Shown here one piece after another: positions 1,522 to 64,000 of a stretch of 64,000 nucleotides of DNA. Position numbers and translations under genes: made by a program. The first letter of the stretch is position 1; every line of letters starts with the position of its first letter. The notes under the pieces were generated by a model. It searched no databases. It was not told where the DNA came from and was given only the letters and a program-made list of their open reading frames with translations. The stretch comes from Escherichia phage FL31, in sequence record PP400782. One strand, given 5' to 3'.

Positions 1522-1539
1522 ACCGGCCGAAAGGCCGGT
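1522..1539 (+). other. RNA stem-loop (GAAA tetraloop) in the gene 14-15 intercistronic region
   Basis: ACCGGCC-GAAA-GGCCGGU directly 5' of the gene 15 SD; no U-run. Confidence 0.5.
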
Positions 1540-6708: not shown

Positions 6709-6720
6709 TAAGACGCCTGA

Positions 6721-6740
6721 TGGGCTATTTCGGTAGCCCA
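6721..6740 (+). other. RNA stem-loop after gene 18
   Basis: UGGGCUA-UUUCGG-UAGCCCA immediately 5' of the gene 19 late promoter; a second AUGGGC...GCCCAU pair at 6775-6802. Confidence 0.45.
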
Positions 6741-6748
6741 TATAAATA
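6741..6748 (+). promoter_or_regulatory. late promoter for gene 19
   Basis: Exact TATAAATA in the 18-19 intergenic region, immediately 3' of a hairpin. Confidence 0.7.
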
Positions 6749-7312: not shown

Positions 7313-7318
7313 TCTGGT

Positions 7319-7334
7319 TGGGGAGAAATCCCCA
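7319..7334 (+). other. RNA stem-loop (GAAA tetraloop) after gene 19
   Basis: UGGGGA-GAAA-UCCCCA 7 nt after the gp19 stop. Confidence 0.45.
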
Positions 7335-7360
7335 GCTTCCCGTGATGACGGAGAAGTCCA

Positions 7361-12719: not shown

Positions 12720-12751
12720 TGGGAGACTTCGGTCTCCCATTTTTGGTTTTA
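12720..12751 (+). terminator. intrinsic terminator after gene 23
   Basis: UGGGAGAC-UUCG-GUCUCCCA hairpin followed by UUUUUGGUUUUA. Confidence 0.75.
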
Positions 12752-14404: not shown

Positions 14405-14433
14405 CAAAAAAAGGGACCGTAAGGTCCCTTTTT
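14405..14433. terminator. bidirectional terminator between gene 24 (+) and rnlB (-)
   Basis: A-run, GGGACC-GUAA-GGUCCC, U-run; symmetric, so functional on either strand. Confidence 0.7.
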
Positions 14434-15996: not shown

Positions 15997-16077
15997 AATC
16001 AATCCCGTATTATTTGGTTTGTGCCATTATATACATCAATCTCAAGTTGTGTTTTGTATGCTTTAAAAACGAAGAAA

Positions 16078-16091
16078 GGGGCCGAAGCCCC
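16078..16091 (-). terminator. terminator after hoc
   Basis: Minus-strand GGGGC-UUCG-GCCCC followed by UUUCUUCGUUUUU. Confidence 0.65.
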
Positions 16092-16097
16092 TTACGA

Positions 16098-17927: not shown

Positions 17928-17956
17928 TAACTATATTTATTACATGGTAATTTGAC

Positions 17957-19471
17957 ATGACTGACATTAAAGTACATTTTTATGATTTTAGTCACGTGCG
18001 CATTGAATGCGACGAAAGTACGTTTTACGAACTTCGTGACTTTTTTAGCTTTGAAGCTGACGGGTATAAATTTAACCCAAAATATCGCTATGGGCAATGG
18101 GATGGTAGAATTCGACTTTTAGATTACAACCGTTTGTTACCATATGGACTTGTAGGACAAATAAAAAAGTTCTGTAGCAATATGAGTTATTCTGTATGGA
18201 TTGACCCTAAAATCTTTGAGACCGAAGACCTTACCAGAGAAGATTTTGACGCATGGCTTTCTAAACAAGAAATTTATTCGGGCAACGCCAAAATCGAACC
18301 ACATTGGTATCAAAAAGATGCAGTATATGAAGGACTAGTTAATCGTCGTCGAATTTTAAACCTTCCGACATCAGCAGGTAAATCACTAATCCAAGCACTT
18401 TTAGCTCGATATTATCTAGAGAATTATGAAGGTAAAATTCTCATTATCGTCCCTACAACAGCATTGACAACCCAGATGGCTAATGATTTTGTTGATTATC
18501 GCTTGTTTAGTCATTCGATGATTAAGAAAATTGGCGGTGGTGCTGATAAAGCAGACAAATCTAAAAACGACGCTCCAATTATTGTTGGCACATGGCAAAC
18601 GGTAGTTAAGCAGCCTAAAGAATGGTTCTCTCAGTTCGGTATGATGATGAACGATGAATGCCACTTAGCAACAGGTAAAAGTATTTCTTCAATCATCTCA
18701 GGATTAAATAATTGCATGTTTAAATTCGGTTTATCCGGCTCATTAAGAGACGGAAAAGCCAATGTAATGCAGTACGTAGGAATGTTCGGTGAAATCTTCC
18801 GTCCTGTTAGCACGTCTAAATTAATGGAAGACGGTCAAGTAACTGAGCTTAAGATTAATAGTATTTTCCTTCGTTATCCGGACGAATTCACCGTTAAATT
18901 AAAAGGTAAAACATACCAAGAAGAAGTTAAAATTATTACCGGACTAAAACGTCGTACAAAGTGGATTGCTCAACTTTCGGTCAAATTGGCTAAGAAAGAC
19001 GAGAACGCCTTTGTAATGTTTAAACATGTTACACATGGTAAAGAAATATTTGAAGCTATTAAAGAGCTTGGATACGAAAAAGTTTATTACGTATCAGGTG
19101 AAGTTGATACTGAAACACGTAACGCGCTTAAAGTCATGGCAGAAAATGGTAAAGGCATTATTATTGTCGCATCATATGGAGTATTCTCTACCGGTATTTC
19201 AGTCAAGAATCTTCATCATGTTATTTTTGCCCATGGTGTTAAATCAAAAATTATCGTACTTCAAACAGTAGGTCGTGTGCTTCGTAAGCATGGTTCTAAA
19301 GCCGTTGCTACAGTTTGGGATCTCATCGATGACGCAGGTGTAAAACCTAAATCATTAAATACTAAAAAGAAGTATACTCATCTTAATTACTTGTTAAAAC
19401 ACGGTATTGATCGTATCCAGCGTTACGCTGATGAGAAATTTAACTATGTAATGAAAACAATTAATTTATAA
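17957..19471 (+). CDS. uvsW: UvsW SF2 DNA/RNA helicase
   Basis: 504 aa; Walker A PTSAGKS and DECH box (MMMNDECH); TATAAATA at 17920-17927. Confidence 0.9.
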   Translation: MTDIKVHFYDFSHVRIECDESTFYELRDFFSFEADGYKFNPKYRYGQWDGRIRLLDYNRLLPYGLVGQIKKFCSNMSYSVWIDPKIFETEDLTREDFDAWLSKQEIYSGNAKIEPHWYQKDAVYEGLVNRRRILNLPTSAGKSLIQALLARYYLENYEGKILIIVPTTALTTQMANDFVDYRLFSHSMIKKIGGGADKADKSKNDAPIIVGTWQTVVKQPKEWFSQFGMMMNDECHLATGKSISSIISGLNNCMFKFGLSGSLRDGKANVMQYVGMFGEIFRPVSTSKLMEDGQVTELKINSIFLRYPDEFTVKLKGKTYQEEVKIITGLKRRTKWIAQLSVKLAKKDENAFVMFKHVTHGKEIFEAIKELGYEKVYYVSGEVDTETRNALKVMAENGKGIIIVASYGVFSTGISVKNLHHVIFAHGVKSKIIVLQTVGRVLRKHGSKAVATVWDLIDDAGVKPKSLNTKKKYTHLNYLLKHGIDRIQRYADEKFNYVMKTINL

Positions 19472-19486
19472 GGGCTTCGGCCCTTA
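19469..19486 (+). other. intercistronic C(UUCG)G hairpin between uvsW and uvsW.1
   Basis: UAAGGGC-UUCG-GCCCUUA overlapping the uvsW stop and abutting the uvsW.1 SD (AGGAG). Confidence 0.55.
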
Positions 19487-28027: not shown

Positions 28028-28033
28028 GAAAAA

Positions 28034-28050
28034 GGGAGACGTTGTCTCCC
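28034..28050. terminator. bidirectional terminator between gene 54 (+) and the alt cluster (-)
   Basis: GGGAGAC-GUU-GUCUCCC flanked by AAAA and UUU. Confidence 0.65.
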
Positions 28051-28059
28051 TTTAGGGGT

Positions 28060-30538: not shown

Positions 30539-30556
30539 AAGAGCCCGAAGGCTCTT
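30539..30556 (-). terminator. terminator-like hairpin upstream of alt
   Basis: Minus-strand AAGAGCC-UUCG-GGCUCUU followed by UUUUGG. Confidence 0.55.
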
Positions 30557-33994: not shown

Positions 33995-34189
33995 TTATCC
34001 TCGCTTTAAACATTTGATTACAGACAGTTCTTGGCTCATGCGGACGTCTTCAGTTCCATCAACCCACAGGACTGCATAGGCTTCTTTAATTAAATTACCG
34101 TTAATTTTAAAAGCAGGTAAAACCTTTGAAATCATTCCGGGGATACCTATACCTTTTAACTGGACAGTTTGTGATAAGAATAGTTGCAT
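33995..34189 (-). CDS. hypothetical protein (64 aa)
   Basis: ATG overlaps the upstream stop as TAATG. Confidence 0.45.
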   Translation of the reverse strand: MQLFLSQTVQLKGIGIPGMISKVLPAFKINGNLIKEAYAVLWVDGTEDVRMSQELSVIKCLKRG

Positions 34190-34476
34190 TAGAACCTCAT
34201 CTGAAATCCGTGTGATTTAACATTACCGCCATAGATGTCAGAGGTATTGACTTCACGAGCGTCGCTAGGGTCGATGTTAATATCATGGTTGAGCTTAGTG
34301 ATTGCTAGGGTGTCACGACCATTGACTGTACGGAATTCTACTGGACAAACCACATCAGCATAAGCCTTAATGGATTCACGGGTGGGCTGTTTGTCGGCAG
34401 GAACATCTTTACCTGCTTTAGAGAAAACAACTTCACAGAAATTTTTACGAGTATCGAAATAAGTGGTCATAAACAT
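34189..34476 (-). CDS. hypothetical protein (95 aa from internal ATG)
   Basis: The track ATG at 34507-34509 is buried in the stem of a C(UUCG)G hairpin; codon 12 ATG at 34474-34476 has a GAGGAAA SD 5 nt upstream. Confidence 0.45.
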   Translation of the reverse strand: MFMTTYFDTRKNFCEVVFSKAGKDVPADKQPTRESIKAYADVVCPVEFRTVNGRDTLAITKLNHDINIDPSDAREVNTSDIYGGNVKSHGFQMRF

Positions 34477-34489
34477 AATATTTTCCTCA

Positions 34490-34509
34490 ATGGAGGCCGA
34501 AGCCTCCAT
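34490..34509 (-). other. C(UUCG)G hairpin between early ORFs
   Basis: Minus-strand AUGGAGGC-UUCG-GCCUCCAU, whose 5' arm contains the AUG used by the ORF track. Confidence 0.5.
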
Positions 34510-34517
34510 TTTTAAGA

Positions 34518-35399: not shown

Positions 35400-35435
35400 A
35401 TCTTTTTAAACTTTTTCTGCCCTAAACGCACAAAA

Positions 35436-35453
35436 GGGAGACCGAAGTCTCCC
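35436..35453 (-). terminator. terminator after the 59-aa basic protein gene
   Basis: Minus-strand GGGAGAC-UUCG-GUCUCCC followed by UUUUGUGCGUUU; 23-nt identity with the gene 32 terminator. Confidence 0.7.
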
Positions 35454-35458
35454 TAAAA

Positions 35459-35638: not shown

Positions 35639-35902
35639 TATAAATTCTCTTTAAATGAAAATGCAGGACTTATTGACATTGCCTGCGCAAGCCCTCAAGG
35701 GGAACATAGGTTTTGGATATTTAACGACAGGATAACCATAAACCTCGTCATCATACCAACCACGTCTTAGACAGATAACCTTTTTCTGACGCGTGATAGT
35801 ACAAAATACATTCAAGAGGTACACCGTAAAACTGCCGGGGACTTAAAACTATAATGATTCGCAAATCATTAATCAGACAGTTCGACGGCTCCTCGATTTA
35901 AC

Positions 35903-36151
35903 TTACTTTAGGGTAATAACAAAATGACGAACTGCTTTACGTGCGGCAGAAGCCAAAGGCTTAGCATATTTCAGTTCATCTTTTGCTTCCAGTTCAGAGG
36001 CCAAAGCTGCCTGGACCGGGTTCAGATGTTTGAAATATCGCAGGATTTCAAGAGCTTCGGCTTCAACATCGATAGATGCGCCATAGTTTTCGTGACCATT
36101 ATTCCATGCGTTACGTTGCAGTTCAAGAGCGTGTTGTAATTGTTTAATCAT
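35903..36151 (-). CDS. rIII: rIII lysis-inhibition accessory protein
   Basis: 82 aa, the same as T4 rIII; MIKQLQHALELQRNAWNNGHENYGASIDVEAEALEILRYFKHLNP... matches recalled T4 rIII. Confidence 0.8.
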   Translation of the reverse strand: MIKQLQHALELQRNAWNNGHENYGASIDVEAEALEILRYFKHLNPVQAALASELEAKDELKYAKPLASAARKAVRHFVITLK

Positions 36152-43662: not shown

Positions 43663-44072
43663 TACTTTTTCTTATGTTGGATATTCCAAGGCGGGTTGAA
43701 CTTTTTGATAAAAAGCGGTTCTTCAAGGTCCATTGTTGCGATGGTCATTGAACCAAGTTCGTTGGTGACTGAAAGGTCAAAACATTGGCGGGCCCAGAAT
43801 TCAACCTTTTTGCCTTGCATTAAGGCATCCAAAATCATAAGTGATTTTCTTGAATCTGAAGTCTGGTCTTTTCGATTTATGGCTGTTCGATAATAGTTAA
43901 TGCGTTTCTTTAAATTCTTGGTTTTACCAATATACACAAGTTCGTCATCTATAGCAATAGCATATATGACATTTTTCTTATTAGGGACATCAACTGTTTT
44001 AATTGTTGCATCTTCTAATAGCTCCAATTCTGTATATTTAATAAAGGAATATTCGGCGGCGATATCTTTCAT
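43662..44072 (-). CDS. denA: endonuclease II (GIY-YIG)
   Basis: 136 aa, the same as T4 EndoII; GIY-YIG block VIYAIAIDDELVYIGKT. Confidence 0.85.
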   Translation of the reverse strand: MKDIAAEYSFIKYTELELLEDATIKTVDVPNKKNVIYAIAIDDELVYIGKTKNLKKRINYYRTAINRKDQTSDSRKSLMILDALMQGKKVEFWARQCFDLSVTNELGSMTIATMDLEEPLFIKKFNPPWNIQHKKK

Positions 44073-44080
44073 AATAAAGT

Positions 44081-44094
44081 GGGACCGAAGTCCC
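44081..44094 (-). other. C(UUCG)G hairpin between nrdB and denA
   Basis: Minus-strand GGGAC-UUCG-GUCCC 5 nt after the nrdB stop and 8 nt before the denA ATG. Confidence 0.5.
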
Positions 44095-44098
44095 GTCC

Positions 44099-44601
44099 TT
44101 AGAAATATTTTTTGTATGAATTGATTACATTTTGGTCTACATCATTATCAATTTGTGCGACAAGATAAGAACTGATTTCAACTTCCTGAGGAGCTGCTTG
44201 AACTAAATCAGAGTTCAGATATTCACGAATCCAAGGATACGGATGCTTGGTCGGAGCATCAGTAATTGGACATGGCAAACCACACTGTTTCATACGAGAC
44301 ACAGTCAAGTAATCAACAAAAGCACACATACTCTGCGTATTGATACCTGGACATGTACCATCTTTAAAGAGGTGTGCAGCCCATTCCTTCTCTTGACTAT
44401 TTACTTCCATAAAAATGTCAACTGCTTCTTGTTCACATTCTTTAGCAATTTGAACCCACTCATCACCGTCAGTACCAGATTGAAGTTGACGGATAATGTA
44501 CTGAGTACCCTTGAGATGGAGTTGTTCGTCACGAGCAATGAACTTCATAATCTTTGCATTACCTTCCATAATTTCCATGTTCTTATGGAAGTTAAAGGTA
44601 C
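44099..44601 (-). CDS. nrdB: ribonucleotide reductase small subunit NrdB, exon 2
   Basis: Encodes ...MEGNAKIMKFIARDEQLHL... (diiron ligands E..H) through the C-terminus. The 5' boundary is inferred so that the splice restores conserved FAC-TFNF and gives 393 codons in frame. Confidence 0.75.
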
Positions 44602-44737
44602 CGTTATGTTCGATTGAGCTCGCTAATTCTCAACCCGTTCTCTTATGAACTGCTACATATTACTATGCAGACCAGACTATATCACAATCCCAGAGGGATT
44701 CTCCCCATTTCGAGTCGCTTGACCCTACGTCCGAAGA

Positions 44738-45547
44738 CTAGTCGTTGAACCTTGCTTTGCAATTGTCGCCGTGCCATCGTTTATATGTTGATGGTGATAA
44801 ATCTTTCTTATCACAATATGGACAATTCAATTGAATTCTATTTGGATTTAATTTACATCTATCATTATGTTTTAGATAAAATCCAGGACCTTTACCAATG
44901 TGACCGCAGAAATCACATGTGATTTCTTTTTGTGCAGGATGGGTTCCGTTCTTAACCATTTCTAATGTTTTTGCTGATGTTCTTTTCTTATGGTCTTCTG
45001 ACAAGAAATGATGTGAACCGTCATTTACCCGTTTTGATTGAGTTTCTGACTGCATTTTACCACCGCAAAATACATGAGTACCTTCTTTTATAGCTGCAAT
45101 ATTGCGTTCTTTAACTTTTGCAATATGCTCAGCTTGTTGAAAATTATGTATACCTAATGCAACTCTATTTAAATTAGATTTACGCTGTATTTCACCGTCT
45201 AAAAGATGAAATGTACCATTTTCTATCTTAGATTTAATAGAGGCAATATTTTTAGCTCGTACTTCAGGGATATTAAAAATCTGGATTTCTCTAGATTTTG
45301 CGGCTTTAGAAGCTAATTCAGAAATTTCTTCAGGAGAATATTTCATTCTAAGCTTTATAGCGTGACAAGCCTGGTAATCTTTTTGAGCTAAATGTATATC
45401 ATAATGTTCCTGTATAGAAAGGCACATCAAATTATCTAAATCATTATTTTCACGGTTACCGTCTTTATGATGGATTTCGTATGTTCTTCCATCAGAATCT
45501 TTAGGTATAGGTCCGTTAGCATCTATCCAAATTTTTCTATAGTTCAA
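44738..45547 (-). CDS. intron-encoded HNH homing endonuclease (I-TevIII-like), intact
   Basis: 269 aa; HNH motif EIHHKDGNRENNDLDNLMCLSIQEHYDIH; C-terminal Cys clusters (CDFCGH...CPYC...C) suggesting zinc fingers; apparent TTG start with AAGAGGA SD; TATAAATA 28 nt upstream. Confidence 0.75.
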   Translation of the reverse strand: MNYRKIWIDANGPIPKDSDGRTYEIHHKDGNRENNDLDNLMCLSIQEHYDIHLAQKDYQACHAIKLRMKYSPEEISELASKAAKSREIQIFNIPEVRAKNIASIKSKIENGTFHLLDGEIQRKSNLNRVALGIHNFQQAEHIAKVKERNIAAIKEGTHVFCGGKMQSETQSKRVNDGSHHFLSEDHKKRTSAKTLEMVKNGTHPAQKEITCDFCGHIGKGPGFYLKHNDRCKLNPNRIQLNCPYCDKKDLSPSTYKRWHGDNCKARFND

Positions 45548-45574
45548 TTGTGCATCCTCTTAAAAGTATAATCA

Positions 45575-45582
45575 TATTTATA
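45575..45582 (-). promoter_or_regulatory. late promoter inside the nrdB intron driving the homing endonuclease ORF
   Basis: Minus-strand TATAAATA 28 nt upstream of the endonuclease start. Confidence 0.55.
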
Positions 45583-45692
45583 TTATACTAATTAAAGGTG
45601 CAAGCAAAACCTTGGCTGCTAGTTTTCCTATAAAGGACTTTCCAGCAATTAAAGGAGTTTTCGATAAACGTTACCGTTTAAAGGCGCATTTT

Positions 45693-46368
45693 ACGCAAAA
45701 GATACATAAAAACGAATAGCTTCTAAGGCATTAATAACGTGTAAACAGAGGTAAAGAGATTTCATTAAAGCACGTTTAGCTTCGGCTTCTTGTTTAATAG
45801 CTCGGTTTAAACGAAAATCAGCATCAGGAGATTCTTTAGCTAGTTCTACAAATTCTTTAGCATTTTCCCAATAACGAGTTTTAACCAGAACATCATCGTA
45901 ATATTTACCTATTGATTCAGCTCGTTTCATGATTGCTTCGTCTAATACAATCTCATCAAATACCTTAGATGGATCGGTATAAAGATTTCGCATAATATGA
46001 GTGTACGAACGAGAGTGAATAGTTTCACTGAATGTCCATGTTGCAACCCACGTATCTAATGAAGGGTCGGAAATCAGTGCCATAAGTACCGCAGATGGGG
46101 CCCTGCCTTGGATAGAATCTAATAATGATTGATACTTAAGATTGTTTGTAAAGATGTCCTGTTGGAACTGAGGAAGCTTATTGAACTGCGCAGAGTCCAA
46201 CATCAAGTTTACCTCTTCTGGGCGCCAGAAAAACGACAATTGCTTTTCAATAAGTTCTTCAAAAACTTTATGTCGCTGAATATCATAACGTGCGAGGCCA
46301 AGACCAGAACCAAAGAACATTGGTTCATTCAAAACATCGACTTGTTGTGTGTTAAAAACTGTACTCAT
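45693..46368 (-). CDS. nrdB: ribonucleotide reductase small subunit NrdB, exon 1
   Basis: Starts MSTVFNTQQVDVLNEP... at the first ATG (the track start 46380 is GTG); R2 fold motifs; ends at the inferred 5' splice site. Confidence 0.75.
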
Positions 46369-46406
46369 TATATTTCTCACTTAGTTATTAACTCATCCAT
46401 GAGTAA

Positions 46407-49020: not shown

Positions 49021-50716
<1,696 letters not shown>

Positions 50717-50778: not shown

Positions 50779-51171
50779 CTACTTTTTAAAAGTTTTTTGC
50801 AAAAGTTTGATGATTTCGTCGACGTTGGTTTCATCTACGATACAATGGATTTTTGTTACACCTAAAGTTATACCTTCGTTAGTAGGTTGAGGCTTTACTA
50901 AATCTACCTCAGTAAAGTATTTGAACTCGTCATGATAAATCTCAAAATAAGTTTCAATTTCACCACCGGCAGAACATACCGTACCGTCTTCCATAGTTAC
51001 ACTTACTACGTTTGACGTATCGCTATCATAATCAGGTTCCATTCCGTTTACAACAAAACTAGGCCCGTGGAGTTCAATCAATTTTAACATCTTAGCGTTA
51101 TTGTGTGGTGCTTCTTGAACAAAGTCGTCTTTAAATAAAGGGTTAATGATATAAGATTTTCCGATTTTCAT
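50779..51171 (-). CDS. hypothetical protein (130 aa; frd.2 position)
   Basis: ATG start; early promoter at 51201-51229 upstream. Confidence 0.5.
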   Translation of the reverse strand: MKIGKSYIINPLFKDDFVQEAPHNNAKMLKLIELHGPSFVVNGMEPDYDSDTSNVVSVTMEDGTVCSAGGEIETYFEIYHDEFKYFTEVDLVKPQPTNEGITLGVTKIHCIVDETNVDEIIKLLQKTFKK

Positions 51172-51200
51172 TTTGATTTCCTCATGTTGTTGATAGGTCT

Positions 51201-51229
51201 ATACTAACACATCCAGGTAAGAAGTAAAC
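51201..51229 (-). promoter_or_regulatory. early promoter for the frd.2-frd.1-frd-td unit
   Basis: Minus strand GTTTAC, 17-nt spacer, TGTGT-TAGTAT-AGAC; directly 3' of the gene 32 C(UUCG)G terminator. Confidence 0.6.
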
Positions 51230-51260
51230 AACTTTTTCGGCAATTTACAGATACTCAAAA

Positions 51261-51278
51261 GGGAGACCGAAGTCTCCC
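51261..51278 (-). terminator. terminator after gene 32
   Basis: Minus-strand GGGAGAC-UUCG-GUCUCCC followed by UUUUGAG. Confidence 0.7.
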
Positions 51279-51284
51279 AATTTA

Positions 51285-52184
51285 TTATAGACCAGCTAAC
51301 AGGTCATCGAGGTCGCCATCGTCAGAAGACGAGGAACTCATGAAGTCATCTTCAGTTTTTGCAGAACCAAAGGCTTCCATGTCTTTATCAAAATCGTCAA
51401 GGTCAGAAGCAACTTTATCTGCAACAGAAGCTGCTGCGGCTGCTGCACCACCAAGAGCGGCAGTACCAAGAACTTGATTAAATTTAGTATTCAATTCTTC
51501 AAACGATTTGAACTTATCTTTAGAAGTCATTTCAGAAAGGTCAACCATTTGTTCGAACAATTCTTTCTGGAAAGATTCATCATCAATGTTTGGAATCGCA
51601 GATTGATTCAGGAATTTAGATTCGTCGTAGTTACTGAAACCAGAAACCTGTTTAACTTTCAGCACAAAGTTAGCACCTTCCCATGGGCAAGTTACATCAA
51701 CAGGAGTTTCACCCATTTCAGTATCGACTGCAATCATTGCATTGATTTTGTCCCAAATCTTTTTACCGAAACGATATTTGAATACTTTACCTTCATTATC
51801 TGGAGCTTGAGGGTCTTTAACAACCAGAATATTAGCCCAATAAGAAGTTTTACGTTTCAGTTGAGAATATTCAGTTTTGTTGGTATTGTACAGGTCATTT
51901 TTACTAATGTACTGACATACAGGACAAGAGTCATAATCGCCGTGTGTAGATGAACAGGTTTCAATATACCATTTACCATTTTTCTTGAACCCGTGGTTAA
52001 CAAGAATTGTAAACGGAAGTGCGTCATCTGTTTTTGCCGGCAGGAAACGAATTACCGCTTGACCATTACCGGATGCATCGAGTTTCAGCTTCCATTCACC
52101 TTTATCTTCTGAAGAGAAACCTTTGTTACCATTCAGTTTAGCCATCTGAGCTGCGAGGTCTGCGGTACTTTTACGTTTAAACAT
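51285..52184 (-). CDS. 32: single-stranded DNA-binding protein gp32
   Basis: 299 aa; zinc-binding H...C...CPVC block ([14 protein letters not shown]); acidic C-terminal tail; near-identical to recalled T4 gp32. Confidence 0.95.
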
Positions 52185-58424: not shown

Positions 58425-59549
58425 ATGGAAAAATTTATGGCAAGGTTTGGACATGGATACGTCCAAACGCCGTTTTTATCGGAAAGCAATTCAGTTAGAT
58501 TTAAGCTAAGTATAGCGGGTTCATGCCCGCTTTCAACAACTAATCCGTATATTTTGTTCCAAAACGAGCCTTTAGGGTTGCAGTCTTTTGGTATTGGACT
58601 AAATGTTAGGGTGATAAATCCTGAAAATGGAACTATAGTTGATAGTAAATTATACAATTTTGCGCCTACAAATAATGCAACTTCGGCAGCGTTTATTTCG
58701 TTTGTTAATACATACGCGGATAATTTCATTTTCGCATTTATTTCTAATAACAAATTTAATTTGCCACCAGAAATAATTGAATGGTTTAAAGCTGCTGGGA
58801 GTTCAGTTATACCGTCAATTGAAGTTGCTAGTCTTGTTGATATTTCATATTCAGCGTTTTATGTTTCAGGTAAAAATACTATTGCATTAGAACACATAAA
58901 ATACAGTAATAAGAAAACAATTTCTGATTACGCAACTCCATTAGATATTGTATATGACTCTATTGCTGATATAGGTGCTACCGGCTATCCTAGACGCACA
59001 TATGAAGCTCTAGAAACGTTTTTATCTCCTGTTGGAGGAACTAACAATGAAATAAAAAGGATGCCTACATCATCCCTTGTTACTCCTATCGCAAACTATG
59101 GATTAAAGCCTACAGATTTTCTTTATTTGAAATTTCAATTAATGGCTGATGAAGAATTATTAGAGGAAGGAACCACAAGACTTTCAATTCGTTTCTTTAA
59201 GTCTCCATCTAGCTCTCCTATATCATCTAAAGATATAAACTTTGATGGAACTGCTGGTGAATGGAAGTTATACGAAGAATATGTTGAAATACCAGCCGAA
59301 GCTGATGGCTTTACGGTATATTGTTACCGTACGGCCCCAGTCGGTCAAGGTGGACTAAGAAATGTTATTTTCACTGAAGTATCATGTAACGGAAGTATAG
59401 CAAAACCTGCCGAGTTTGGTATAAACGGTATTCGTGTTAATTACATTGATGAATCATTAACCGGTAATGATATAATGGACTTGCCTACTCAGTTATCTAA
59501 CGACACAGGTAAGGTATTTGGGCAGGAATTTAAAGAGTACACAGAATAA
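58425..59549 (+). CDS. 35: long tail fiber hinge (knee) protein gp35
   Basis: 374 aa (T4 372 aa); position 34-35-36. Confidence 0.85.
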   Translation: MEKFMARFGHGYVQTPFLSESNSVRFKLSIAGSCPLSTTNPYILFQNEPLGLQSFGIGLNVRVINPENGTIVDSKLYNFAPTNNATSAAFISFVNTYADNFIFAFISNNKFNLPPEIIEWFKAAGSSVIPSIEVASLVDISYSAFYVSGKNTIALEHIKYSNKKTISDYATPLDIVYDSIADIGATGYPRRTYEALETFLSPVGGTNNEIKRMPTSSLVTPIANYGLKPTDFLYLKFQLMADEELLEEGTTRLSIRFFKSPSSSPISSKDINFDGTAGEWKLYEEYVEIPAEADGFTVYCYRTAPVGQGGLRNVIFTEVSCNGSIAKPAEFGINGIRVNYIDESLTGNDIMDLPTQLSNDTGKVFGQEFKEYTE

Positions 59550-59570
59550 AGGAGACTTCGGTCTCCTTTT
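59549..59570 (+). terminator. terminator after gene 35
   Basis: AAGGAGAC-UUCG-GUCUCCUU then UU; overlaps the gp35 stop codon. Confidence 0.65.

Positions 59571-60273: not shown

Positions 60274-64000
<3,727 letters not shown>

Follow-up and report, generated by a model that had tools for sequence, protein, structure and literature searches.

Sense-oriented C(UUCG)G hairpins next to stop codons in an RB69-like Escherichia phage, with a recurring stem of probably convergent origin

Introduction

C(UUCG)G hairpins were reportedly first described by Tuerk et al. in PNAS in 1988. Their discovery in bacteriophage T4 mRNA in that year and their extraordinary stability are recounted in Hall 2015 (PMC4371310), in agreement with the original prediction for the DNA studied here, which had called such hairpins a known T4 feature. 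The terminator of T4 gene 32 consists of GGGGACC CUAGA GGUCCCC UUUUUU and is followed by an early promoter and frd.3. T4-type phages also carry composite terminator-promoter cassettes, termed PeSL (Arbiol 2010, PMC2839356; Comeau 2014, PMC4122927), and the stems described for those of T4 and PST have the form AGNA-loop-TCNT. In addition, T4 genes 38 and 25 have split ribosome-binding sites (Nivinskas 1999; Malys and Nivinskas 2009, as cited in PMC3014915), in which, according to the same source, hairpins between the Shine-Dalgarno sequence (SD) and the AUG enhance translation, the SD-AUG spacing of gene 38 being cut from 22 nt to 5.

Here, we describe the hairpins of a 64,000-nt stretch (hereafter the window) of Escherichia phage FL31 (sequence record PP400782), a T-even phage of the genus Mosigvirus (RB69-like). 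The 4-kb piece around positions 51261-51278 shows about 98% identity to the Escherichia phages vB_EcoM_G2469, moha, the AV1xx series and NBG1, and the window is collinear with NBG1 from gene 13 to gene 37 at 84-97% identity. The hairpins of the window share with the T4 C(UUCG)G hairpins the same loop, the C-G closing pair, a short G+C-rich stem, the sense orientation and the intercistronic placement, but differ from them in stem sequence. Since the family was described in T4 in 1988, finding it in a Mosigvirus is ordinary: the phenomenon is already known from T4 and is re-observed in an RB69-like genome, and the main outcome is to confirm that RB69-like phages, too, have this classic feature of T4. 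For this genome segment, the result is also a clean annotation of terminators and of hairpins between cistrons, useful for delimiting transcription units and for picking terminators or insulators in phage engineering.

Results

Predicted terminator at the 3' end of gene 32

The plus strand reads GGGAGAC-CGAA-GTCTCCC (GGGAGACCGAAGTCTCCC) at positions 51261-51278, and the hairpin on the opposite strand starts 6 nt past the stop of a 299-aa ORF (51285-52184, minus strand), which is gene 32 (ssDNA-binding protein) according to the annotation in relatives. At the orthologous site, NBG1 is annotated with a 'terminator'. Downstream of the hairpin come UUUU, then AAAAAGTTGTTTACT-N17-TATAGA, an SD and the frd.2 start at 51171 (ORF 50779-51171, Pfam FRD2). 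This order of hairpin, U-run, early promoter and frd matches the T4 gene 32 layout, which suggests that the focal feature is the gene 32 terminator of this phage. Like the T4 terminator, it lies directly past the stop and combines a G+C-rich 7-bp stem and a U-run with an early promoter for frd genes; it differs in the stem (GGGAGAC versus GGGGACC), the loop (UUCG tetraloop versus CUAGA pentaloop) and the tail (UUUU versus UUUUUU). Judged by its sequence and position, the hairpin thus appears to be the positional counterpart of the T4 gene 32 terminator, and we predict that it serves both as an intrinsic terminator and as a 3' stabiliser of gene 32. Gene 32 transcripts would end at this copy, and the early promoter directly after it would restart transcription for frd.2.

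Together with that promoter, the focal hairpin can be read as a PeSL-like (promoter-early stem-loop) terminator-promoter composite. The succession of stem-loop, A-rich tract, GTTTAC -35, -10 element, SD and start codon is found at 35435 and 51261, that is, at only two of about 15 hairpins and two of nine early promoters in the window, and neither stem is of the type described for the T4 and PST cassettes.

Sense orientation of C(UUCG)G hairpins at gene ends

Hairpins were collected with purpose-written scans (UUCG loop, C-G closing pair, stem of at least 5 bp), which took the place of a generic terminator scan. The latter returned 11 versus 12.9 expected and 17 versus 12.9 expected in the window, not exceeding shuffles, and is uninformative because its loose U-window criterion is easily satisfied in A+T-rich DNA. 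Rfam at gathering thresholds gave no match anywhere in the window, which means that the hairpins belong to no family curated there.

The window contains 11 C(UUCG)G hairpins, compared with a mean of 0.39 and a maximum of 3 in 300 dinucleotide-preserving shuffles; when the count was confined to padded intergenic segments (4.2 kb), nine were found versus 0.0125 (maximum 1) in 2000 shuffles. A chance origin of the family is excluded by these shuffles. Ten of the 11 lie at gene 3' ends, on the plus strand at 12720, 19469, 59548 and 63589 and on the minus strand at 16076, 30539, 34489, 35435, 44081 and 51261, and all ten carry UUCG on the sense strand of the upstream gene (one-sided binomial p ~0.001). 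All ten also start between -3 and +23 nt from the upstream stop codon and have the C-G closing pair. The eleventh (59291, minus strand) runs antisense within the gene 35 coding region, has a weak stem with G.U and looks like a chance occurrence. Other hairpins at gene ends comprise one U(UUCG)G hairpin (6720, where the closing pair is U.G), three with GNRA loops (1522, 7316 and 14408) and one triloop (28034). Nearest-neighbour predictions of stability range from -7.5 to -16.4 kcal/mol, and from -7.5 to -14.4 kcal/mol for the C(UUCG)G hairpins. Among the 83 gene 3' ends of the window, 27 have a sense hairpin of -7 kcal/mol or lower within 55 nt, ten of them with a UUCG loop.

Whole-genome scans found 21 C(UUCG)G hairpins in T4 (20 of 21 sense) and 23 in NBG1 (22 of 23 sense), nearly all adjoining a stop codon. 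The family proposed in the original prediction is therefore real, with 11 members against 0.39 in shuffles, and its claim that the loop always reads UUCG in the sense transcript agrees with 10/10 here, 20/21 in T4 and 22/23 in NBG1; hairpin count and orientation both exceed the shuffled or random expectation. In our interpretation of sequence and placement, these hairpins constitute a strand-specific, probably RNA-level family of C(UUCG)G elements of very high predicted stability just 3' of stop codons (Table 1).

Table 1. Hairpins of the window and the early promoter next to the focal hairpin, by position
Feature	Position	Strand	Arms and loop	Adjoining sequence and context
Genes 14/15 hairpin	1522..1539	+	ACCGGCC GAAA GGCCGGU	then UAGGAGAAAUGAUG
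Gene 18 3' hairpin	6720..6741	+	AUGGGCUAU UUCG GUAGCCCAU	U.G closing pair; late promoter after
Gene 19 3' hairpin	7316..7337	+	GGUUGGGGA GAAA UCCCCAGCU	
Gene 23 (major capsid protein) 3' hairpin	12720..12739	+	UGGGAGAC UUCG GUCUCCCA	UUUUUGGUUUU; between convergent genes; predicted terminator
Gene 24/rnlB hairpin	14408..14433	both	AAAAAGGGACC GUAA/UUAC GGUCCCUUUUU	gene 24 (+) versus rnlB (-); predicted bidirectional terminator
hoc 3' hairpin	16076..16093	-	AAGGGGC UUCG GCCCCUU	UCUUCGUUUUU; same hairpin in T4
uvsW hairpin	19469..19486	+	UAAGGGC UUCG GCCCUUA	includes uvsW stop; GGAGAUAAAAAUG (SD + uvsW.1 start) directly after; intercistronic, no U-run
Triloop hairpin	28031..28053	both	AAAGGGAGAC GUU/AAC GUCUCCCUUU	bidirectional; convergent gene 54 (+) and alt.-3-like ORF (-)
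alt.1-like hairpin	30539..30556	-	AAGAGCC UUCG GGCUCUU	UUUGG; overlaps alt.1-like stop
Intercistronic hairpin	34489..34510	-	AAUGGAGGC UUCG GCCUCCAUU	then GAGGAAAAUAUUAUG; at edge of gene replacement versus NBG1
30.9-like ORF 3' hairpin	35435..35454	-	AGGGAGAC UUCG GUCUCCCU	UUUG; early promoter ~35398 after
nrdB/denA hairpin	44081..44094	-	GGGAC UUCG GUCCC	SD-like UAAGGA (overlaps nrdB stop) 5'; denA AUG 8 nt 3'
T4-type early promoter	51195..51233	-	AAAAAGTTGTTTACT ... GGATGTGTTAGTATAGA	downstream of focal hairpin
Focal hairpin	51261..51278	-	GGGAGAC UUCG GUCUCCC	then UUUUGAG; dG -12.0 kcal/mol
Gene 35 hairpin	59548..59569	+	AAAGGAGAC UUCG GUCUCCUUU	UCGCG; overlaps gene 35 stop; late promoter TATAAATA after
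37/38 junction hairpin	63589..63606	+	GAGGGGC UUCG GCCCCUU	then GGAGGUUUAUAUG (SD + gene 38 start)

Predicted terminators and intercistronic hairpins

The hairpins differ in what follows them, and the original division into U-run copies, taken as likely terminators, and copies adjoining an SD proves correct by both U-content and SD context. U-run copies are those at 12720, 16076, 30539, 35435 and 51261 together with 14408 and 28034 (both strands each), and they have 5-11 U among the stem-terminal and next eight bases. The U-tract is borderline at 59548 and 44081, and the hairpins at 1522, 19469 and 34489 lack one. We propose that the U-run copies (12720, 14408, 16076, 28034, 30539, 35435 and 51261, and more weakly 59548) are most likely intrinsic terminators, which would also act as 3' barriers shielding the upstream message from 3' exonucleases. 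Several U-run copies have late (TATAAATA) or early promoters downstream, an arrangement that would fit terminator-promoter punctuation. At several copies the U-tract is short or interrupted (UUUUGAG at 51261, UUUGUG at 35435 and UCGCG at 59548), and termination efficiency may consequently be partial. A literature search for mapping of T4 transcript 3' ends gave nothing directly usable.

The copies at 1522, 19469, 34489 and 63589 have an SD and start codon within 0-2 nt and no U-run, so that efficient termination is not possible there. They are better seen as candidate intercistronic structural punctuation, probably combining a 3' stability barrier with an insulator of the downstream ribosome-binding site.

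The start of denA (44072-44103, minus strand) shows a third arrangement, in which the 8 nt leading up to the AUG contain no SD and an SD-like AAGGA stands just 5' of the 14-nt hairpin at 44081. Folding would cut the SD-AUG spacing from about 23 to about 9 nt, and there is no other SD before denA. The hairpin could in this way bring the SD-like sequence closer to the denA AUG, as in the split ribosome-binding site of T4 gene 38, which the order AAGGA, 14-nt hairpin, 8 nt, AUG resembles. We therefore list 44081 as a candidate split ribosome-binding site, with translational coupling to the nrdB stop as the alternative. In T4, the nrdB-denA gap is only 3 nt, unlike the hairpin region of the window. 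The T4 37/38 junction carries a C(UUCG)G hairpin too, but its counterpart at 63589 has a normal SD after it and so forms no split ribosome-binding site.

A different role would apply if the GGGAGAC stems were substrates or decoys of the phage endoribonuclease RegB, a cutter of GGAG between the genes of early mRNAs, and marked processing sites rather than terminators. The 5' arm does contain GGAG, NBG1, a related genome, has an annotated regB homologue, and GGAG/U cleavage falls mostly in intergenic translation-initiation regions (PMC3014915). However, the GGAG is buried in a stem of -12 kcal/mol, most family members have stems without it (GGGGC, GGGC, GAGCC and GGGAC), several GGGAGAC copies follow late genes (23, 54 and 35) that are transcribed past the early role of RegB, and bacteria without RegB commonly carry this hairpin too, which together make this reading very improbable.

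Conserved sites and loop with compensatory stem changes

T4 has hairpins at sites orthologous to those of the window at hoc, gene 23, 30.9, alt.1 and the 37/38 junction. Between T4 and Mosigvirus, the sites and the loop are kept while the stems differ by compensatory paired changes: the gene 23 hairpin is AGGGAACC UUCG GGUUCCCU in T4 versus a stem arm of UGGGAGAC in the window, the 30.9 stem arm is GAGGACUCC in T4 versus AGGGAGAC in Mosigvirus, and that of soc is GGACUCC versus GGAAUCC. A check of positions against T4, which the original prediction had proposed, thus revealed several hairpins at orthologous sites as well as the T4 terminator and early promoter after gene 32. In NBG1, 'terminator' features put in the record by its depositors stand at sites orthologous to window hairpins, and the counterpart of 59548 has the GGGAGAC stem.

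The gene 32 site was further followed through 80 homologue loci from the viral contig collection IMG/VR (37-92% protein identity), 76 of which have downstream sequence. A G+C-rich hairpin occurs within 70 nt after the gene 32 stop at 69 of these 76 loci. The 37 distinct hairpins include 17 with UUCG, three with other UNCG, two with UUUG and two with GAAA loops. Across the 19 distinct tetraloop hairpins, six of seven stem pairs have changed on both sides, while the C-G closing pair and loop positions 1 and 4 are invariant. The 100% stem pairing in this covariation table is circular because the hairpins were chosen by a pairing filter, and the independent evidence at these loci consists only of the 69/76 frequency and the stem diversity under a constant loop.

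T-even phages are highly recombinogenic. This established property, together with the perfect palindromes that the stems form in the DNA between genes, would suit an explanation in which the inverted repeats work at the DNA level, whether as cruciforms, as palindromic binding sites for proteins or as hot spots of recombination, the RNA hairpin being a by-product. Such an explanation is extremely improbable in view of the loop, which reads UUCG on the sense strand in 10/10 hairpins here, in 42/44 of T4 and NBG1 combined and in 66 versus 2 other viral contigs among the matches listed, since a DNA palindrome has no reason to orient an asymmetric loop; the compensatory substitutions that change the stems with the loop retained likewise speak against it.

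Origin of the shared GGGAGAC stem

An exact GGGAGAC/GTCTCCC stem occurs four times in the window (12721, 28034, 35436 and 51261) and not once in 100 shuffles. Five copies had originally been counted, but the stem at 59548 is AAAGGAGAC, which matches at 6/7 positions. The copy at 28034 had been placed in the UUCG family: its stem is exact, whereas its loop is a GUU triloop, so that GGGAGAC-GUU-GUCUCCC presents the focal stem with a different loop. Two copies are indeed identical over 23 nt, as had been noted, although the shared block spans 35431-35453 and 51256-51278 rather than starting at 51258 and ending at 51280.

Two sources, duplication or selection on the stem sequence itself, had been put forward for the shared stem. 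In an alignment of the flanks of the GGGAGAC copies, similarity stops at the U-run, save for the early promoter after 35435 and 51261. Duplication was rejected as the main explanation of the shared-stem copies on the ground that their flanks are alike only in the early-promoter consensus. Of the original pair of sources, duplication thus finds no flank homology, and selection holds for a class of stems, GGGAGAC itself not being special.

The exact 18-mer GGGAGACTTCGGTCTCCC was found in at least 120 unrelated viral stretches of IMG/VR, in 110 distinct flanking contexts, and the contigs that carry it range in G+C from 0.30 to 0.63 among the matches listed. Again among the matches listed, the UUCG strand alone has a long ORF ending upstream in 66 contexts and the CGAA strand alone in two, and the 8 nt after the 18-mer contain at least five T in 96/110 contexts. 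Bacterial genomes of many phyla also hold it in at least 120 stretches, with a T-run after the hairpin in 102/125 contexts among the matches listed. Elsewhere, then, the exact 18-mer mostly looks like a sense-strand terminator.

Stems of the same composition are comparably frequent in IMG/VR (108 stretches for GGAGGAC and at least 120 for GGGGAAC), and on this evidence GGGAGAC was rejected as a uniquely favoured stem. The version of the GGGAGAC stem with a GAAA loop was found 88 times. By contrast, the arm-swapped hairpin GUCUCCC-UUCG-GGGAGAC occurs in only five stretches, versus at least 120 for GGGAGAC-UUCG-GUCUCCC with the same base pairs. Because other purine-rich stems are about equally common, selection appears to act on the stem class, with a G/A-rich 5' arm, and not on GGGAGAC specifically. 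In a pool of 120 phage C(UUCG)G hairpins (bait-excluded and non-redundant, but not phylogenetically independent), purines make up 79% of the 5' arm, and the arm seen most often is GGGAGAC (9/120). The preferred design would accordingly run from an A-run through a G/A-rich 5' arm, C(UUCG)G and a C/U-rich 3' arm to a U-run. We speculate that this polarity may arise because a pyrimidine-rich 3' arm would give a weaker RNA:DNA hybrid and hence easier hairpin completion.

These results suggest that the recurring GGGAGAC stem is mainly the product of convergence in a narrow design space defined by the purine-rich 5' arm. One exact 18-nt hairpin would have been reused convergently across unrelated phages and bacteria, the purine-rich 5' arm being strongly preferred, and identical short terminator stems are accordingly poor evidence of duplication.

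Descent offers another account of the copies, as terminator or terminator-promoter cassettes of PeSL type that were duplicated, or homogenised within the genome by short-patch recombination or gene conversion, with lineage-favourite stems and with cassettes as junctions of module shuffling. In its favour, the copies at 35435 and 51261 are identical over 23 nt with a very similar early promoter about 30 nt after each, and both match the PeSL arrangement (PMC4122927), in which a stem-loop precedes an early promoter, an SD and a start codon. However, their downstream similarity is that of the general T4 early-promoter consensus, common to nine promoters of the window of which seven have no hairpin, and the copies of gene 23, gene 54 and gene 35 are alike in the stem only. 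Moreover, identity needs no common descent, since the identical 18-mer recurs in unrelated viral stretches (at least 120) and in bacterial ones (at least 120). Comparisons between genomes speak for descent in that the repeated stem differs from one to another (GGGAGAC four times plus GGAGAC and a triloop in NBG1; GGACUCC twice and AAGGGGC twice in T4), and one IMG/VR locus has GGGAGAC at 3/3 sites in 20 kb where its relatives have three different stems. When 8-10 stems were drawn from the pool, at least three were identical with p ~0.05-0.10 and at least four with p ~0.004-0.01. To find three to four stems identical in a set of about ten hairpins is thus somewhat more than random draws from a phage-wide pool yield (p about 0.01-0.1), and convergence may not be the whole story, but the within-genome excess of stem sharing is marginal and the pool is not phylogenetically independent. 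As regards module exchange, hairpin 34489 adjoins a gene replacement relative to NBG1 (breakpoint 34190-34469) but is not promoter-linked; the other breakpoints against NBG1 are at 35799-35913, 44599-45678 and 50468-50476, neither 35435 nor 51261 coincides exactly with any breakpoint, and no indel directly flanked by two PeSL-like cassettes was seen in the window. Overall, we consider descent an unlikely explanation of the GGGAGAC copies.

In a more specific form, non-orthologous T-even terminators would be homogenised within a genome, lineages would have favourite stems, and the blocks of about 20 nt would double as microhomology junctions for module exchange. We hold this to be rather improbable; within-genome homogenisation is retained as an unproven, minor contribution to stem sharing, for which the evidence is at most weak. 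If true, it would extend the PeSL idea to promoter-less terminators.

Convergence is thus retained as the main source of the shared stem. As a whole, the hairpins are very probably mRNA-level C(UUCG)G elements (a few with GNRA loops), placed within about 25 nt past stop codons, that would serve as terminators, barriers or punctuation. The analysis establishes that they exist, are enriched, keep to one strand and to gene ends, and are conserved with compensatory changes; their effects on termination, mRNA stability and translation are inferred.

Bacterial matches in Gallionellaceae and related genomes

Gallionellaceae, Sideroxydans and Nitrosomonadales are strongly over-represented among the bacterial matches listed (six loci and others), and MAGs of these groups often hold two exact GGGAGACTTCGGTCTCCC hairpins within a few kb. 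A terminator favoured in this lineage, or a small repeat, could account for the excess.

Promoters, gene replacement and mobile elements

Nine intergenic T4-type early promoters lie on the minus strand of the window, at 51228, 43661, 42479, 41073, 38949, 35398, 34952, 28411 and 13077. Their consensus comprises an A-rich tract, GTTTAC[AT], about 9-11 nt and GGAnGTGnTAnTATAG, and an SD with a start codon comes after every one of them.

The gene replacement at 34190-34469 corresponds to NBG1 130891-131552 (280 nt here, 660 nt in NBG1), and on its upstream side it is bounded by the start codon, the SD and hairpin 34489. For the ORF listed as 34189-34509, the most likely start is the ATG at 34476, past the hairpin and the GAGG SD.

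The nrdB gene (44099-46380, minus strand) is split into ORFs of 159 and 229 aa, both matching Pfam Ribonuc_red_sm, by an insert of about 1.1 kb that is absent from NBG1 and carries an HNH endonuclease ORF (44738-45547). A sub-threshold Rfam match to a group I intron (44653-44889; 35.4 bits versus a gathering score of 50; E = 6e-7) lies within the insert. Probably, therefore, a group I intron and its homing endonuclease interrupt the gene here, as they do in T4 nrdB. Between inh and uvsW (window 17950-17957), NBG1 contains an additional homing-endonuclease gene, and near frd (window 50468-50476) an additional small ORF; in other relatives, a Seg-like endonuclease is found between genes 32 and 59. 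These insert differences at inh/uvsW, frd and 32/59 are typical T-even mobile-element polymorphisms.
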